Shown: in pieces, positions 3,702 through 63,444 of the stretch
How the letters are laid out: every line of letters begins with the position of its first letter
How positions within the stretch are numbered: the stretch's first letter is position 1
Source: Octopus vulgaris
Taxonomy: Eukaryota
Assembly (NCBI GenBank): GCA_951406725.2
Contig: OX597823.1
Span: 19,778,001 to 19,842,000, forward strand
Direction of reading: 5' to 3'
DNA length: 64,000 nt
The notes under the pieces: model-generated
What the model was told of the DNA's origin: nothing
What the model saw: the letters and a program-made list of their open reading frames with translations, nothing else
The model's database searches: none
Made by a program: the position numbers and the translations under genes

Positions 3702-3989
3702 TATATATATATATAAATTTAGGAAATGCATTTGATCAAATCTAGACTATGTATGTTTTCTAGCTAGCAGAACCTCAGAGGATTAATTACTTCCTTCTAC
3801 AACCTTCTACGGACTGCTCGAAGCTTACTAACTTCCTACACATAGAATCTTGGATTTTACCTCTACTTCTATATCTGTATACTTTTACATACATACATGC
3901 AAACATACATACGTACATACCTACATACATACATACATACATACATACATACATACATACATGCATGCATACATGCATACATAAATATG

Positions 3990-4040
<51 letters not shown>

Positions 4041-4467
4041 ATATATACGTGTGTGTGTGTGCGTGCGTGTGTGTAGCAGCAATCTTTCCGTACAGCCAAT
4101 GTTTTCTCTATTCATATGTCTGCCTGTCTTAGTAATTCATGTCTTACTAATCTAACCTGAGCCTTAGACCGCCCAAGAGAGCTGTCAGGTAGTTGTTTTA
4201 CAGGTAAAGCAACTTCTCATTGACAAAATTTTGACTTTTTCACTCTATTTACTGACCAGATCAAACAACATAGTTTCAACGGACTAGAGAAGAAGAGAAT
4301 GTATCTGGTTTGTTGAAAAACATGTTATCTGTTTGGTTAAGGGGGAGCCATTTTGTCTTTTCATTTCGTCATCAACTCGGACAATGATAATAGTATGATA
4401 ATAGCCTAGGTCTAGATGTGCAGTCGAACTGACGGAAAATTATTTATTTGAAAACAAAGCTGCACAA

Positions 4468-4972
4468 CATATATTCATGTATACATACATGTATACATTC
4501 ATGTATACATACATACATACATTCATGTATACATACACACACATACATACATAAATACATACATACATAAATACATACATACATACATACATAAATACAT
4601 ACATACATACATTCATGTATACATACATACATACATACATACATACATAAATACATACATACATAAATACATACATACATACATGCATACATACATACAT
4701 ACATACATACATGCATACATACATACATACATGAATACATACATACATAAATACATACATACATACATGCATTCATACATACATACATAAATACATACAT
4801 ACACAAATGCATACATACATACATACATACATACATACATACATACATAAATACATACATACATACATACATAAATACATACATACATACATACATACAT
4901 ACATGCATACATACATACATACATACATACATACATACATACATACATACATACATACATACATACATACAT
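4468..4972. repeat. (ATAC)n tetranucleotide microsatellite, ~500 bp
   Basis: Direct reading. Confidence 0.97.
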
Positions 4973-6987
4973 TATAAGAACAAACGTTGGTATTAAACGT
5001 GGAGGATTACCAGAAAGATTTAAGGCTTTGGTCTACCAATATGGGAGCGTCCCAAGAATCGTCTGGCACCTGCTCATCTCTGAAATTTGCACAACAGTAG
5101 TATCGTAGCACATAGGCTCGGTACACATAGTCTTTGAGTATATGATGGGCAGCTATCATCACAGATGGTTTGGTTTAGTTTGCTACACAGGTGGAGCAGT
5201 ATTGGACTGTACAGAAGCTGAAACATGTTCAGGCTTCCGTTTCGTTCCGTCAGGAAAGAAATCGTGATGACACGGCTAAGAGAACAATTGCTGTACACCA
5301 ATTCAAGGGACACCAAATCGTCTATCGCAGGGATTGCAGTAAGTATATGAAAGAAATGGAAGGTAATCGAGGCAATCAAGCAGGTAGTGGAGGAACTGAA
5401 ACACAAGATCCATCATGGGAGTATTCCATAGGGCAGGGTCAGATTTAGAAGCGTTGCAATACGGAAGAAGGGCAAGCAACGGAACAGTAGTGATGCGGAC
5501 ACACTTCCAGTATGAAGAGGGAGAAGGCGAGGGAGCAGAATGTCACCTAGCAGAACACTTGGAAATGGAACTCGTAAATGATCAAGTTCTTGATCTAGCG
5601 GGGTCTATGATGGTCTCCTCAGGCTATTCAACCCATTTACACGGGGCTTAGTAAAAATCACCGCTTACACCTTCTGTTCTGAGACATGGGCCCTCGAACG
5701 TATCTTAGGTAGCTGCTTTAAGGCACCGAGTGAAGGATGCTATCGCTATAGACACATTCATGTAAATAAGATCTGCAATTAGACAGAAGATCAGTGGCAG
5801 CAGAAATGCCAGCATTATAGCCTGAATAATAATCTTTTTAAGGTGGGAGAGCGACGTAATAAAAGCGCCAAGAACAGCTGTGACGATTTACTTTCCATAG
5901 CACAGGGCTGGGTGATAGGAGTTAACTTGGAGAAACAACTAATATATCTATCAAACATCACACGTACTTTGTTGAGATCAGATATCATCTTGGTTATAAG
6001 GCAACAAGGCATCTAATCCTATCGGAGTTGTCTACCCTTGAAAGAGAGGACGGAGGAGATTGAAGAAAGATAGATGGCTAAGTAGGAGGAGTTGATAGAG
6101 GAATGGAATAGAAATCTAATGAAAACCAGGTGTTTGGGCGTCGAGGATTCGTAGGTCGTATGCTGAGTAAGGTCTATGGAAACCTGAATAATACAAGAAT
6201 ACTGAGAAAGAACCTTGATAGCTTTGACTGAAAAGAGATGATCGGTGGGATTAACAGAATGCGCATTAGACACAAGCCGTAACGTGATTACTCTAGATTA
6301 GGTCATTTGCACAAAGGTGTATGTTCTAAGTCCCGAAACAGCCGTTAACTTCTGGATACAACATGGCCGTTGTAACCGCGTATTGCATCAGAAGATGTAT
6401 GCAAGACGGCACAATTGTGGCCTACAATTTGGAGCATACATATCATACAATATAAAAACTGTCACTCCGTCGGTTATGACGATGAGGGTTCAAGTTGATG
6501 CGATCAACAGAACAGCATACTCGTGAAATTAACGTGCAAATAGCTGAGCACTCCACAGACACGAGTTCTCTTAACGTAGTTCTCACACCGATGTTGGTGT
6601 GTTTACGTCCTCGTAACTGTCCGATTCGGCAATAAGAGACCGATACAATAAGTACTAGGCTTACAAAGAATAAGTCCAGGTGTCGATTTGTTCGACTAAA
6701 GGCGGTGCTCCAGCATGGCCACAGTCAAATGACTGAAACAAATAAAAGAATAAAAGAATGAATATATGTGTGTGTGTGTGTGTTTTATCTTTCACTTGTT
6801 TTAGTCATCAGACTCCGGCCATGCTGGGGCACGGCCCTGAAGAAGTTTAGTCGAACGAATCAACCACAGTACTTTAGTTTTTTTTTTTTAGCCTGGTCTC
6901 TTTTCCCGAACCGCTATATTACAGGGACGAAAACACACCAATGCCGGTTGTCAAGCGATGGAAGGAGGGGGGTAAACGCAGACAAAG

Positions 6988-7018
<31 letters not shown>

Positions 7019-7194
7019 CTTGCTATAGTAGAAAACACTTGCTCGAGGTACGACGCTGTGGGACTGAACCCGGAAATATATGGTTGGAAAGCAAGCTTCT
7101 TACCACTCAGCCATATCTATTTAATATATATGTACACTTATATATGCATATATATATATGTATGTACATGTATGCACATGTGTGTGTATGCATT

Positions 7195-7273
<79 letters not shown>

Positions 7274-7448
7274 AGACGTAGGAATGGTTGTGTGGTAAGT
7301 ATCTTGCTTAAGAATCACATGGTTCCGAGTTCAGTCCCACCGTGTGGCACCTTGGGCAAGTGTCTTCTACTATAGCCTCGGGTCGATCAAAGCCTTGTGA
7401 GTGGATTTGATAGACGGAAACTGAAAGAAGCCCGTCGTGTATATGAAC

Positions 7449-7486
<38 letters not shown>

Positions 7487-7488
<2 letters not shown>

Positions 7489-7869
7489 AGGCGCAATGGC
7501 CCAGTGGTTAGGGCAGCGGACTCGCGGTCATAGGATCGCGGTTTCGATTCCCAGACCGGGCGTTGTGAGTGTTTATTGAGCGAAAACACCTAAAGCTCCA
7601 CGAGGCTCCGGCAGGGGATGGTGGTGATCCCTGCTGTACTCTTTCACCACAACTTTCTCTCACTCTTACTTCCTGTTTCTGTTGTACCTGTATTTCAAGG
7701 GGCCGGCCTTGTCACTCTCTGTGTCACGCTGAATATCCCAGAGAACTACGTTAAGGGTACACGTGTCTGTGGAGTGCTCAGCCACTTACACGTTAATTTC
7801 ACGAGCTGGCTGTTCCGTTGATTCGGATCAACCGGAACCCTCATCGTCGTAACCGACGGAGTGCTTCCA

Positions 7870-7870
<1 letters not shown>
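7487..7870 (+). mobile_element. tRNA-derived SINE (family C) with LINE-like, probably RTE-type, 3' tail
   Basis: A box TGGCCCAGTGG, B box GTTTCGATTCC; same head at 8907, 11597(-) and 45691; tail also found alone, inverted, at ~6462-6585. Confidence 0.85.
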
Positions 7871-7943
<73 letters not shown>

Positions 7944-8378
7944 TGTCTGTGTTTGGCTCCCCCAACATCACTTGATAACCGATGCTGGTGTGTTTACGTC
8001 ACCGTAACCTAGCGGTTCAGCAAAAGACTCCGATGCAATAATTACCAGGTTTACAAAGAATAATTGTTGGGGTTCGATTTGCTCGACTAAAGGCGGTGCT
8101 CCAGCATGGCCACAGTCAAATGACTGAAACAAATAAAAGAATAAAAGAATGAATATATGTGTGTGTGTGTGTGTTTTATCTTTCACTTGCTTTAGTCATC
8201 AGACTCCGGCCATGCTGGGGCACGGCCCTGAAGAAGTTTAGTCGAACGAATCAACCACAGTACTTTAGTTTTTTTTTTTTTAGCCTGGTCTCTTTTCCCG
8301 AACCGCTATATTACAGGGACGAAAACACACCAATGCCGGTTGTCAAGCGATGGAAGGAGGGGGTAAACGCAGACAAAG

Positions 8379-8411
<33 letters not shown>

Positions 8412-8587
8412 CTTGCTATAGTAGAAAACACTTGCTCGAGGTACGACGCTGTGGGACTGAACCCGGAAATATATGGTTGGAAAGCAAGCTTCTTACCACT
8501 CAGCCATATCTATTTAATATATATGTACACTTATATATGCATATATATATATGTATGTACATGTATGCACATGTGTGTGTATGCATT

Positions 8588-8676
<89 letters not shown>

Positions 8677-8852
8677 AGACGTAGGAATGGTTGTGTGGTA
8701 AGTATCTTGCTTAAGAATCACATGGTTCCGAGTTCAGTCCCACCGTGTGGCACCTTGGGCAAGTGTCTTCTACTATAGCCTCGGGTCGATCAAAGCCTTG
8801 TGAGTGGATTTGATAGACGGAAACTGAAAAGAAGCCCGTCGTGTATATGAAC

Positions 8853-8906
<54 letters not shown>

Positions 8907-8908
<2 letters not shown>

Positions 8909-9287
8909 AGGCGCAATGGCCCAGTGGTTAGGGCAGCGGACTCGCGGTCATAGGATCGCGGTTTCGATTCCCAGACCGGGCGTTGTGAGTGTTTATTGAG
9001 CGAAAACACCTAAAGCTCCACGAGGCTCCGGCAGGGGATGGTGGTGATCCCTGCTGTACTCTTTCACCACAACTTTCTCTCACTCTTACTTCCTGTTTCT
9101 GTTGTACCTGTATTTCAAAGGGCCGCCTTGTCACTCTCTGTGTCACGCTGAATATCCCCGAGAACTACGTTAAGGGTACACGTGTCTGTGGAGTGCTCAG
9201 CCACTTACACGTTAATTTCACGAGCAGGCTGTTCCGTTGATCGGATCAACCGGAACCCTCATCGTCGTAACCGACGGAGTGCTTCCA

Positions 9288-9288
<1 letters not shown>
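8907..9288 (+). mobile_element. tRNA-derived SINE (family C), duplicate copy
   Basis: Near-identical to 7487-7870. Confidence 0.85.
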
Positions 9289-9339
<51 letters not shown>

Positions 9340-9824
9340 TGTCTGTGTTTGGCTCCCCCAACATCACTTGATAACCGATGATGGTGTGTTTACGTCACCG
9401 TAACCTAGCGGTTCAGCAAAAGACTCCGATGCAATAATTACCAGGTTTACAAAGAATAATTGTTGGGGTTCGATTTGCTCGACTAAAGGCGGTGCTCCAG
9501 CATGGCCACAGTCAAATGACTGAAACAAGTAAAAGAGTAAAAAAGAGAGAGTATGCAAACGCACAATCACATATAAAACTTACGCGCACACGCACGAATA
9601 CAGAGAGAGAGAGAGAATGAGAGGTTGATAGAGAAAGAGAAAGAAAGAGAAAGAGAACGGGAAAGAGAGAGGGAGAGAACGAGAGAGAAAGAGAGCTGGG
9701 GGTAATGTAGACGGTGCCAACGGAAGCTATTGTCGGCATAACTGTAAACATCTCGCGTCAGCCTATTAGCGAGAAATACGGCGCTTCTTTGATGGAGGCG
9801 ATACAAAGCTGCAACTGCTGCTGC

Positions 9825-15955: not shown

Positions 15956-15974
15956 TATATATATATATTTATAT

Positions 15975-16006
<32 letters not shown>

Positions 16007-16139
16007 CGATATAGTGTATATTTATACACATAAGGAATCCACACTTAGGGTGAGATTCAACACATTAGATAACCACAAAAATAATAGATAAAATTCGACA
16101 GGAATAAATTTGGAAATGAAAAACATTTACCATTTAATA

Positions 16140-16215
16140 CCCCGGACCAAATTAGTTTCTGATCTTCTTTTAGCAAGTCGGGGGAACTCGCAAGGTCTGA
16201 TCTTCTTCGGCGAGG
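16140..16215 (-). ncRNA. Type-I hammerhead ribozyme (CCGAAGA core)
   Basis: cctcg CCGAAGA A GATC [internal hairpin GCGAGT..ACTTGC] GATC A GAAA CTAATTTGG TC cgggg; stems I, II and III all pair; GUC cleavage triplet. Confidence 0.75.
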
Positions 16216-16254
16216 TACAACCTGGGGTTAAAACATAGATTTATTTACCGGAAT

Positions 16255-16313
16255 ATTATGTTGATGAAGGAAATGAATCTCATGATTCTAATCCAGAAAC
16301 GTGCGTCCATAAT
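16255..16313 (+). ncRNA. Type-I hammerhead ribozyme (UUGAUGA core)
   Basis: attatg TTGATGA A GGA aat GAATC tcat GATTC taa TCC A GAAA CGTGCG TC cataat; perfect 6-bp stem I; GUC triplet. Confidence 0.8.
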
Positions 16314-16592
16314 TGACCGTGGACTGTTTGATTTCGTTATTTTTCTTCTTTTTTTGCCATATATGAGTTACAAATATTGTTATCTGTGGAGACATATTTT
16401 TTGTAGTAAGAGGAAATAGCAGTCCTCTGGCTGCTATTTCTAAACTTTTCGGTATGTGGTCAAGCAACTTGTTGCAAAAACCCTTATTGTTATAATTATA
16501 TAAACTTTTACCGAATATGGTCCTTTTCCATACCGAAGTGCTACTAGGTGAAATTTGTTGATTTTATTAAATTAATTATATTTCACCCTTTA

Positions 16593-16636
<44 letters not shown>

Positions 16637-19299: not shown

Positions 19300-19720
19300 C
19301 TCAACAAACACATTTGACCAATCCCAGGCAATCCAGCAATAAACAGGCACATTTGACCAATCCCAGGCAATCCAGCAATAAACACACACATTTAACCTAT
19401 CCAAGGCAATCGTGCAATCAGCAAACACATTTGACCAGTCCCAGGCAACCTTGCATTCAACAGAATCATTTGACCAACCACAGGCAATTCTGCAATCAGG
19501 AAACACACTTGACCAACCACAGGCAATCCTGCAGTCAACAGACACACTTGACCAGTCCCAGGCAACACTACAATCAACAGATACATTTGACCAACCACAG
19601 ACAATCCTGCAGTCAACAGACACACTTGACCAGTCCCAGGCAACACTACAATCACAGATACATTTGACCAACCACAGGCAATCCTGCAGTCAACAGACAC
19701 ACTTGACCAATACCAGACAA
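19300..19720 (+). repeat. 36-bp minisatellite (~11-12 units) coding a THLTNxRQSCxQQ repeat
   Basis: Unit ~CACATTTGACCAACCACAGGCAATCCTGCAGTCAACAGA; in frame apart from a 1-nt deletion near 19655. Confidence 0.92.
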
Positions 19721-26787: not shown

Positions 26788-26905
26788 CGTGTACAGCACC
26801 TAGGTTTTCCAAACGGTCACCAATCTAAGTACTAACTAGGCTCGATGTCGCTTAACTTCGGTGATCGGTGAGAACCGGTGCTTTCAACGTGATATGGCCG
26901 TAAGC
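26788..26905 (-). rRNA. 5S rRNA copy (probable pseudogene)
   Basis: GCTTACGGCCATATCACGTTGAAAGCACCGGTTCTC-ACCGATCACCGAAGTTAAGC...AGTACTTAGATTGGTGACCGTTTGGAAAACCTAGGTGCTGTA; matches metazoan 5S with several substitutions. Confidence 0.92.
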
Positions 26906-27281: not shown

Positions 27282-27960
27282 ATAGATGCATATATATATA
27301 TATATGTATAAAGTCAACATAACGTAACAGTCCCGTAGAGGGAATTACACCACCGCTATATAGCCCTAGGAAGCATCGACGCTTCTTGTCGGCTTTGACA
27401 CATTTCCTGTGACCTTATATTTGCAACCTGGAGACTAGCAACCTGGAGACATGCATGTTTCTGGGTCTTGCCCGTCGTCAGTCCAGGGTAGCGTGTCCTC
27501 GCTAGCGGTGATACTTACCAGGCCCTTGCGAATATATCTATTTACAGTGAAATTTATTCACTGGTCACCGTAATTAGAAATATTGAATTTCTAAATGTCT
27601 TAACGAGACATGAGCGGTGATAGAGCGATAGAGTGGTTATATATATATATATATATATGTACACCGATTTGTTCTGCTTTTTATATTTAACCCTACAGTC
27701 TCTTATGTGGTGGTTTAATAAAGTATGTGATTGAGTATTATCTGGTAATTGATATTTGATTTAGATGTATTTCTCCATTTTCTTATCTTGTATTAGTAAT
27801 TTGTGGTAAATCATTTTTACCTTTGCCCATATAATACAGTAAATGAATTGATTGCATCGCAATCATTAACATTTATGTATTAACTTTGTTGGGTACTTCA
27901 CTAGCAGTATATTGGATATATGTTATCCCATGGAGGGTTGCATTTACAACCCCTATCTCA

Positions 27961-37168: not shown

Positions 37169-38713
37169 AAAGAAGAAGAAGAAAAATGATAGTTTTAAAT
37201 GTAAATTTATAATATGGGTAGAAAATCTGTATGTTTTAAAGCTGTTCTCTGTAAATATTCTCTTTTTCACTGATTCTCAAAGAAACGTTCACATCTGTAG
37301 GACAGATGACCTCTATAACTGAACATAATTTTGTTTCTCCTTTTCTGTCACAAGCAATTATAGCAAACCTGTTACATTTGCATTTGACGGAAGTTTTGAT
37401 GGCAAAAGTTCTATCAATGTTCCATGTGTTGAAATGTATGTATTCTACCACTGCAGTATTTTCTTTCTTTTTTTTCCAGAGAAGTCTTTTCAACGCTTGG
37501 CACTGTATATTCTCTTCGTAACAACATCATGCGTGAGTTGCTAAACACATGTATTATATTTATCACATAATTATGGCATAACTAACATTTCCGGTATTAT
37601 ATTGGGGTTTTAAACCCTTCACTGTTTCTTTGCTTTATTAAGTATTTTGTGTTACATTTTAATAACTATGGAATGGCTTTCTTCTTTCTATAACCACTCA
37701 AGTATCCCAAATATATGAGCATTACAATTTGCATAGTGGGATTTCTTAGCGGAAAAAAATTCTGTTATATGTCTTAAACTTTGCTTCATGTAAAGGTGTG
37801 AATAAAGACGCAATGGCGTTGTTCACCCTGTCTTTAATCACAACTTTAGATAAACGTTTCCGTCAACAGCTAAGTATTTGGAGCACTCGTTGTGGGAAGC
37901 AACGAGACCATTATACATATAAGCTTTGAGTATGAGAAACAGCTTTCCATATTCAAATATCAAATGTGAATATGAGAAATTCCATCTCTGTAACAGCTGA
38001 AAATTTTGTAATCTAATTCCAGCCGTTTCTCAGCATTATAGATATATTTAAAATGAATCAACCTCGAAGAAATAATGAGTTACATTCACGTCTAATGCTG
38101 AGCACTTAACTACTTTAAAAAAAAAATATTTTGTAGAAAATATTTGACAATGGGTTTAACGACAGATTAAACCGAAACATAGATTGATTTCTTGGAACAT
38201 TACGTTCGAAAAAATTATAAGATAAATAATTGCTCATAATAGTTGACCAGATATTTGTAACCTTCCAATCACAGCAATTAGGGCAGCACCTCTCTTTCTC
38301 CGGAGTAATAATCTGTTGTTAAGAGTGTTTAGTCATAAAATGGTTCAAGTTTGTGTAAATTTCGTCTTAGCGATTCTTAAAACACTTCATACTTTCAGCA
38401 AAAAGATTTTCACGTGGTTTTCCATTGCACCGGAATAAATTTTGATTTAATTATAAAGAGAAGTGGTATGAACCGAAAACTTACGCCGTCTTACAGAGTT
38501 GGCACTACGGCTGGTGTCGATCTTTCAGTAGTATTGTTTTTATCAGCGTTATGAATACGCTAAAAGTACAGTTGACTATCCAATGTCCAATTACTTTCAC
38601 GCTAATTCGATAATAAAGTAATTCATTTGAGCCAGCAATAGAATACTCATTGATGAAAAAGATGGAGAGCCATTTTATAGGTGGTAAATATATTGTTAGA
38701 ATGTTTATAACTG

Positions 38714-46932: not shown

Positions 46933-46967
46933 GTTTCCGACGAAGAGCTCCGCTCGAAACGTTAAAC
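46933..46967 (+). ncRNA. Minimal hammerhead (CCGACGA core)
   Basis: gttt CCGACGA A GAGC tcc GCTC GAAA CG TT aaac. Confidence 0.72.
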
Positions 46968-59987: not shown

Positions 59988-60033
59988 AACACAACGTTTC
60001 GGCTGATATGCCCACCAGCCTTCATCAGATGTC
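59988..60033 (-). ncRNA. Canonical minimal type-I hammerhead
   Basis: gacat CTGATGA A GGCTG gtgggcatat CAGCC GAAA CG TT gtgtt. Confidence 0.85.
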
Positions 60034-61968: not shown

Positions 61969-62031
61969 AGATAAAACTCTGAGTTTCAGATGCCGAAGTG
62001 GAAATCCACAACACCATCTCTTCGGTTATCT
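61969..62031 (-). ncRNA. Type-I hammerhead (CCGAAGA core) downstream of PLE RT
   Basis: agataa CCGAAGA GATG gtgtt GTGGA tt TCCAC ttcgg CATC T GAAA CTCAGAG TT ttatct. Confidence 0.8.
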
Positions 62032-62489
62032 GGCCATCTGAAAAAACGCTATGAAAATATACCGTTATATAAAGGGAAAATACTGTGTTATAATTATGCT
62101 ACTTATATAAAAGAAGATTAAAATTTCATAGTCTAGTCATACGCTCACATGTGCGCTCGCGGACCCACGTGCGTACTTATACGTCACTATGAAAACGTAC
62201 ACATCTTCACTCGCATTTTTCGCCAAATATATACGCATATATATACAAACTCATACACACACAAATGCGTACCGTAAAAGTTCATACATACGTCTATATA
62301 CGCACAAGCACAAGAAAAACCATGGTTAAACGTAACAGAAAAAAACATAAGGAAGTATACAAAGCATAAAAACCACGTTCATATACTGACATGCCCTTAT
62401 GCACTCATACACACACGCCCATATATGTACATAGCCGCACATGTTTATATACGCATACACACACGCGCATATACGAAAAATGAATATAT

Positions 62490-63235
62490 TGTTGTGGTTT
62501 TTGTGTGTTATGTTTGATTATATTTTTAAAATTGGTAGTTGAACTAAAACTAATTTTTAAATTGTGTTTATTGAAGAGTTTCCTATAAGTATGGTTAACT
62601 GGAAAATGTCTATCTATCAGTGTTAAGAAATATTTACCTATATTGAAGGTCACCTCGGTTGAGTAAGGGAGTGTAAACCAGATGATCTTCCTATTTCTAT
62701 TTTTCCTCTTCTTTACTGTTGGGCTAGTAACAGGTGTATATTTGATTTTTTCGCTAAAACCACTATCTTTTAAAGCCTTATTATAAACTGGGGCAACGCT
62801 ATTAAAAATGTCCTTATTGGAGGAGAGGCTAGAAATTCTCTTACTAATATTTTTAACTAAATTTTTGAATACTATAGGGGGATGGCATGAACCTACATTA
62901 ATATAACTAAGTCTATCATTGGGCTTCCTATAAGGCTTATAAATATTCTTATTTAGATCTAAGGAAACGTCTAGGAAATTGACAACCGTCAGGTTAGTAT
63001 CTATTGTTATACTAAGTCCGAAGTATTTCCTTAATTGGATAATATCCTTCCTAAAACGATCCTGTGCTGGTCTATTTGTATTAGCGGTTAAAGCGAGGGC
63101 ATCATCTTTGTAGATGGCGAAATATACGTCAGGAAATGTCTTACCTAAAGTATCTAAGAGAAAAAATCCAATAAGATCGCAAATGCCTGCTCCATCATAT
63201 GACCCCATGCTCACATCGAAAGTACCCTCTGTGTC
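62490..63235 (-). pseudogene. Penelope-like element reverse transcriptase fragment (RT motifs 4-7 plus thumb/linker), possibly Naiad/Chlamys-type
   Basis: FDVSMGSYDGA..CDLIG, YKDD, NFLDVSLDL...YKPYRKPND...Y....SCHPP, RNRKIIWFTLPYS..V..NIGKYFLTLIDRHFP; ends at a SINE on the 5' side and stops before the GIY-YIG domain. Confidence 0.92.
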
Positions 63236-63242
63236 GGTATAT

Positions 63243-63444
63243 AAGGCGACGAGCTGGCAGAAACGTTAGCACGCTGGGCGAAATGCGTAGCCGTATTTCG
63301 TCTGCCGTTACGTTCTGGGTTCAAATTCCGCTGAGGTCGACTTTGCCTTTCATCCTTTCGGGGTCGATAAATTAAGTACCAGTTACGCACTGGGTTCTGT
63401 CTTTGTTTGTCCCCTCTATGTTTAGCCCCTTGTGGGTTGTAAAG

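Follow-up and report, generated by a model that had tools for sequence, protein, structure and literature searches.

Hammerhead motifs, (TA)n targets and inverted copies have been described together in Penelope-like retroelements (PLEs), and the available parts of these papers provide the closest parallels to the locus discussed here. PLE insertions target (TA)n tracts and carry adjacent inverted truncated copies (Craig et al., 2021, PMC8557442), fold-back insertions being a standard PLE pattern (PMC8557442; PMC3846280) and head-to-head the most frequent inverted arrangement (PMC3846280). In work with a purified PLE protein, both target strands were cleaved and extended; its hammerhead was cleaved only when the protein was present and was dispensable for insertion in vitro (PMC11167929). 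Of the 26 Hydra-clade rows in File S2 of PMC8557442, 15 have stem II flanked by an unpaired letter at each side, and stems III are palindromic. Among the PLE motifs of Cervera and De la Pena (2014, PMC4209133), the UUGAAGA core and one AGAAA are encountered (Fig. S3), and a truncated PLE is depicted with a second, opposite-strand motif at its 5' end (Fig. S4A). Stem II-flanking mismatches, palindromic stems III, (TA)n targeting and opposite-strand pairs are, in the parts of the two papers at hand, already described for PLEs (PMC8557442; PMC4209133).

The window analyzed here, a stretch of 64,000 nucleotides of Octopus vulgaris DNA (contig OX597823.1, positions 19,778,001 to 19,842,000), contains two different hammerhead-type sequences, A and B, placed back to back on opposite strands (Table 1). 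This arrangement had been reported in an earlier note based on the sequence alone and is present, with a gap of 39 nt by the bounds used there and of 36 nt when stem I is taken in full. The extra A on both sides of an extended stem II was likewise found in both motifs; for the minus-strand motif the core, the extra As and the cleavage site were as described, while stem I comprises 8 bp instead of 5 bp. The motifs share this architecture and not their sequence, and the view that no recent inverted duplication is involved agrees with our analysis, in which blastn and nhmmer gave no self-match between the halves of the cassette and a search for a long inverted repeat found none. Terminal inverted repeats, looked for under a MITE reading, were absent, and this reading was rejected. 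The (TA)n-bounded cassette of ~580 bp holds in its coordinates and less well as one element, as it probably consists of two halves. We believe, with a probability of roughly 75%, that it represents the 5'-truncated 3' ends of two PLEs from different families in a head-to-head join; the PLE families behind the halves probably belong to the Hydra clade.

Table 1. Coordinates of the cassette, its two hammerhead motifs and related features of the window.
Feature	Position	Strand	Remarks
(TA)n tract	15956-16006	.	Adjoins half A 3' end; likely insertion target
Half A, multi-copy repeat	16007-16237	-	Putative 5'-truncated PLE 3' end (pLTR-type)
Shared TA dinucleotide	16236-16237	.	5'-to-5' junction, common to both halves
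Half B, multi-copy repeat	16236-16596	+	Putative 5'-truncated PLE 3' end
(TA)n tract	16597-16634	.	Adjoins half B 3' end
Hammerhead A, type I	16218-16137	-	U4C core, A.A mismatch at 10.1/11.1, extended stem II
Motif A stem I	16218-16211/16144-16137	-	8 bp
Motif A core CCGAAGA	16210-16204	-	
Motif A extra A	16203 and 16160	-	One each side of stem II
Motif A stem II		-	GAUC/GAUC plus 6-bp hairpin
Motif A stem III	16156-16146	-	Near-palindromic, 4 pairs, 3-nt loop
Motif A cut	between 16145 and 16144	-	Predicted
Hammerhead B, type I	16255-16313	+	U3.G8 core, A.A mismatch at 10.1/11.1, extended stem II
Motif B stem I	16255-16260/16308-16313	+	6 bp
Motif B core UUGAUGA	16261-16267	+	
Motif B extra A	16268 and 16295	+	One each side of stem II
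Motif B stem II		+	GGA/UCC plus 5-bp hairpin extension, then GAA-A 3' of extra A
Motif B stem III	16299-16306	+	Self-complementary (palindromic)
Motif B cut	between 16307 and 16308	+	Predicted, after GUC
Compact hammerhead at 27481	27487-27442	-	Consensus core, C.A mismatch flanking stem II
Minimal hammerhead at 46937	46933-46967	+	Extra letter after A9 only, U4C core
Minimal hammerhead at 60028	60033-59988	-	Extra letter after A9 only
Hammerhead at 62025	62031-61969	-	CCGAAGA core, one-sided extra U before GAAA, 31 nt from TA tract
RT fragment, 5'-truncated frame	62405-63265	-	~370 nt upstream of 62031-61969 hammerhead

Both motifs fit a three-way junction with a CUGANGA/GAAA core and an NUH site, with one core variant each (U4C and U3.G8, respectively). 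Pairing at 10.1-11.1 beside the core is absent from both and is replaced by an A.A mismatch, so that they are variants rather than canonical type I members, natural U.U mismatches being known. A descriptor scan of the window returned four motifs, against a mean of 0.13 and a maximum of one in 30 block-wise dinucleotide shuffles, and a class-split scan raised the total to six hammerheads; in three of these, stem II carries an extra letter at either side, a class that averaged 0.01 over 100 shuffles. One or both motifs might still be chance matches, motif A having perhaps been built by a perfect 12-bp direct repeat (16158-16169 and 16196-16207) that provides both strands of its stem II. The non-consensus cores are compatible with such an origin, and so is the outcome of two checks proposed in the earlier note: the Rfam hammerhead models left both motifs unmatched at the gathering score and even up to E 10, and local folding gave weak z-scores of -1.1 and -1.4 for the two motifs. 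Compared with the predicted minimum fold, the hammerhead fold is less stable by 3.9 kcal/mol in the plus-strand motif and by 5.8 kcal/mol in the minus-strand motif. Nevertheless, the 3-4 motifs observed compare with shuffle means of 0.01-0.13, stems I and III are improved by the majority letters of the families, and the same layout is seen again in published hammerheads and in other, unrelated motifs of the window; a chance origin is thus extremely improbable.

Regarding variation among the copies, for which 40 of 102 sites are listed, the majority letters at 16154 (97-100%) and 16137 (76-100%) turn wobbles of motif A into Watson-Crick pairs, and with them the gap to the minimum fold is about halved, from 5.8 to 2.7 kcal/mol. 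The present copy of motif A therefore appears slightly decayed. Variants at 16143 (29-52% in three runs, at a CpG site) and 16140 (3-36%) fall on the 3' strand of its stem I and would break pairs there, barring covarying partners. In motif B, A at 16303 in 52-64% of the family makes the stem III palindrome perfect; among the variant sites listed, a TA insertion behind 16301 leaves this stem palindromic, and the variable positions 16281 and 16283 both lie in loop 2. An ambiguous one-letter loss at 16266 in 8-36% would, if it is G that is lost, yield the U3-A8 core described for PLEs. Taken across the stems, the listed sites, which carry no linkage to one another, comprise supporting single-site changes and two pair-breaking ones. 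Judged from these sequences, variation within the families (16303, the TA insertion, loop 2, 16154 and 16137) would seem to favour structure.

Stem III of motif B is too short to close within one molecule, and its pairing would take a second one. For stem III, homodimer energies of -8.8 and -6.1 kcal/mol are predicted, against 0 for the heterodimer. Each motif would likely show no more than weak cleavage, as a homodimer. At the locus itself activity is predicted to be low, because in vitro cleavage is reduced by U4C and, of the mispairs at 10.1-11.1, U.U has the highest activity (PMC3088659), and because single minimal PLE motifs were not cleaved, their dimers being cleaved weakly (PMC4209133). 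Exact motif B patterns gave no match in viral contigs and none in metagenome contigs. A gapped motif A pattern hit 120 metagenome loci, which we attribute to chance and rejected since none of the 120 closes stems I and III or has a blastn match to the cassette.

Twenty runs from 10 studies, with four organism labels and including very small runs, contain the cassette or parts of it. Copies were surveyed in 4 of 24 listed runs from three organisms at 80% likeness, giving 1574, 700, 1748, and 126 contigs; the small run X15 was taken as RNA by guess only. All 30 bins of the cassette were covered, and both halves proved to be multi-copy in runs of three organisms. Among the 32 listed of 4212 pieces, three long contigs reach 16237 from the left (one each in X15, X5, and X6, i.e., under three organism labels), and all of them depart there into 47-66 unlike letters, while one X6 contig begins at 16236; the halves therefore overlap by one TA. 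None of these 32 pieces bridges the junction, and none of the four that touch it crosses. With 32 pieces listed out of 4212, bridging contigs may exist among the others. In X15, motif A is covered by one departing contig alone, at a flat depth of 72.2 over 16148-16227. The sequence that follows half A in one departing contig is absent from the window. A loose end at 16150 in X1 belongs to a diverged motif A subfamily with another stem II region, in which the extra A before GAAA is kept. A stretch of 32 nt at 38175-38206, 81% like the junction spacer 16231-16262 (E 0.009) and without a hammerhead, is probably a chance likeness.

Summed contig depth, which is not a copy number, peaks near both outer ends of the cassette and is lowest over 16148-16247, barring one bin where this copy has a deletion. 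In X1, half A reaches 55,000-106,000 near its outer end versus 3,800-6,800 over the hammerhead, and half B 24,000-182,000 over most of its length. The depth beside motif B exceeds that beside motif A by factors of 6.4, 6.7, and 7.3 in X1, X5, and X6, respectively, and of 1.4 in the small run. Peaks at the outer ends are what 5'-truncated copies would give. The depth implied over 16238-16247 (~6,200, 340, and 5,300) comes close to the depth of motif A, with motif B far higher, and fits a joined subfamily as well as edge loss. Many inverted junctions occur among the copies of half B: 9 of the 15 listed joints are opposite-strand, with both ends of all nine in 16236-16547, and half B thus appears to form fold-back insertions. 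In one X1 contig, such a joint runs from exactly 16236 to 16326. Dispersed 5'-truncated copies with inverted junctions are therefore seen for B, while for A only the depth gradient points to them. Within the window, a truncated paralogue of half B at 40990-40715 on the minus strand (match 40890-40729, 75% identical) has the same 3' end and its own (TA)n tract, and carries neither a hammerhead nor half A.

Several features connect the halves with PLEs. Half A, half B and the half B paralogue all have their 3' end in (TA)n, and the motifs lie near that end, at a distance from the TA tract of 131 nt for A and 283 nt for B. The depth gradient, taken as a guide to orientation, puts each motif on the sense strand of the half that carries it, the usual placement of PLE hammerheads. 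Neither half has an ORF for RT plus C-terminal GIY-YIG upstream of its hammerhead, which truncated copies would be expected to lack, and no RT or endonuclease ORF could be linked to A or B, the single tblastn match in the window being at 62381-63241. The RT fragment located there has 246 homologues at E<=0.001, and among the 120 listed a MGSYDGAE-type motif occurs in 85, a CxC linker in 72 and a YIG motif in 39. In PMC8557442 (supplement), proteins of Hydra-clade PLEs are marked by GSYDGAE, and the frame looks close to Hydra-1_Obim when compared by eye. Between the fragment and the nearby hammerhead an unrelated-looking stretch replaces the endonuclease region. Pfam searches gave nothing useful for four ORFs of the window and a sub-threshold GIY-YIG match in one of four homologues of the RT fragment. 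The fragment and the hammerhead at 62031-61969 are read together as a 5'-truncated Hydra-like PLE.

The window as a whole consists of animal DNA that is rich in repeats and includes 73 TA tracts of >=12 bp. A TA tract lies within 290 nt on the 3' side of five of the six hammerheads, compared to 37.5% of random positions, a weak excess given that A and B are among the five. The U4C variant occurs in three of the six. The compact hammerhead at 27487-27442 has a perfect 10-nt palindromic stem III and lies in a TA-bounded island (27305-27640), where another possible cut site and stem I strand arise from a 15-bp duplication. When aligned, the four islands that bear motifs revealed no common ancestry at the sequence level. 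About 540 nt from this compact motif there is a lone 5S rRNA-like copy (26788-26905, minus strand, 84 bits), adjoined by a repeat which we take to be SINE-like. In addition, a 39-bp minisatellite of about 11 copies with open frames on both strands is located at 19301-19720, and paired microsatellites and near-identical frames at about 6900-7950 and 8300-9350 give the appearance of a ~1.4 kb tandem duplication.

The break at 16237, the TA flanks, the lone B copy and the presence of a hammerhead of the same type behind a Hydra-like RT all speak for two joined PLE tails. The implied depth past the junction, the joint at 16236, the symmetric spacing and the ORF-less halves speak against them, as do the variants at 16143 and 16140 that would break stem I pairs of motif A. 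Some of these points could also be explained if the two halves were joined a single time and the product then multiplied as a non-autonomous unit, with a hammerhead in each polarity and either strand as template. The depth at the junction stays above single-copy level and matches motif A, a joint again involves 16236, stems I of both motifs begin 17 nt from the central TA, and both ends are PLE-type 3' ends able to prime insertion. However, none of the four listed pieces touching the junction crosses it, a crossing contig is absent from X15, which contains both halves, and no other joined A+B copy exists in the 64-kb window, so that we consider a spreading unit unlikely. Slightly less likely again is its fuller form, in which two PLE tails made a composite element that was amplified as one in cephalopod genomes and whose two strands each have a working hammerhead and a priming end.

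Alternatively, A and B may be the ends of one longer element that lost its middle by deletion at the TA microhomology. Past 16237, other copies of half A do run on into unlike sequence, PLE copies commonly show microhomology deletions in the available part of PMC3846280, and the legend of Fig. S4A in PMC4209133 records an opposite-strand second min-HHR at the 5' end of one PLE. Ends of one element are difficult to reconcile with their several-fold difference in depth, with the folding back of half B on itself in many copies and with the occurrence of B alone at 40.7 kb, and we hold this history to be quite improbable. The earlier note had favoured a single genomic element whose sense and antisense transcripts can both self-cleave, and had pointed to ribozymes in both polarities as typical of viroid-like and satellite circular RNAs. 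An integrated RNA of this type would account for one hammerhead per strand in about 590 nt devoid of ORFs, and the circular folds of both strands are slightly more stable than those of shuffles (z of -2.6 and -3.0). Yet the paired fractions of 0.61 and 0.57 equal those of shuffles (0.60 and 0.56), for which reason the cassette cannot be called rod-like, no listed joint connects its two ends, and the motif architecture is that of PLE hammerheads. The note had proposed collecting further copies, and had named two unrelated fragments joined only here as an outcome that would contradict it; this is largely what was found, with three of three listed contigs leaving at 16237. Given also that the halves are separate genomic repeats with a 6- to 7-fold difference in depth and that B has a lone copy, a single element self-cleaving in both polarities is not supported, and an integrated viroid-like RNA is very improbable.

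Under the preferred reading, of two PLE tails from different families, the GIY-YIG endonuclease would nick the TA tract, two different RNAs would be reverse-transcribed from their 3' ends, with priming on opposite strands and an early stop, and the two truncated 5' ends would join via the TA microhomology. The geometry would be that of a usual fold-back PLE insertion with a foreign partner, and both a single event with two templates and two successive insertions are compatible with the locus. In the parent elements, the likely role of each hammerhead would be the processing of tandem transcripts, with the ribozyme acting as a homodimer via its palindromic stem III. At the locus, where each is a lone and slightly decayed copy, cleavage is predicted to be weak or none, and A and B would be unable to partner each other.

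As read here, the locus offers two undescribed, abundant hammerhead-bearing repeat families, whose A.A mismatch and long stem II are missed by Rfam, together with one case in which different families are joined head to head. It also calls for caution, since ribozymes on both strands need not mean a viroid-like agent where about one hammerhead per 10 kb and a common TA target are present. Should mixed joins be frequent, they would bear on the unsolved mechanism of PLE insertion, and the case would also gain weight if the A+B join spreads as a unit. If the composite reading were true, it would show how retroelement debris in a genome can give rise to a viroid-like RNA with two ribozymes, and would indicate that a single insertion complex is able to copy RNAs from two families.

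Within the literature covered, which excludes most subscription journals, we found no description of the A and B families, of the A.A form with a long stem II or of a mixed-family join. Lunse et al. 2017 reportedly present PLE hammerhead variants, which may include an A.A variant. Six short motifs taken from halves A and B are absent from the supplement of PMC8557442. Viroid-like circular RNAs resemble the cassette in having one hammerhead per strand; unlike them, the cassette has separable halves, is not rod-like and gives no sign of circularity in the listed contigs, which are unstranded. Non-LTR retrozymes, in the part of the preprint available (bioRxiv 10.64898/2026.07.22.740005), also combine a type I hammerhead with a non-coding repeat, but they form tandem units that each carry a hammerhead, whereas the locus has no tandem array.

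The minimal hammerheads of metazoan PLEs come closer, since in the accessible parts of PMC4209133 they share with A and B the extra letter after A9, a G-C closing pair and a palindromic helix III for dimer action, and dual motifs are found on opposite strands about 100-700 bp apart. The cassette differs from them in its gap of <40 nt, in the extra 3' A of both motifs and in a longer-than-minimal stem III. Fold-back PLE units have the same build as the cassette, with 5' ends joined, 3' ends outward and microhomology at the 5' junction, as far as covered by PMC3846280 and Fig. 2 of PMC8557442; their arms are copies of one family, while the arms of the cassette are unrelated. Finally, in the available text and supplement of PMC8557442, the hammerheads of Hydra-clade PLEs are, like A and B, of type I, on the sense strand and a few hundred nt from a 3' end in (TA)n. 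The mismatch at stem II is U.U in 14 of their rows and U.C in one, as opposed to A.A in the cassette, and the internal loop plus hairpin of stem II and the U4C and U3.G8 cores set the cassette motifs apart from these rows. Where an inverted truncated copy is attached, as in Penelope-13_HM, these elements also present one motif per strand, the inverted partner being of the same family there and of a different family in the cassette.
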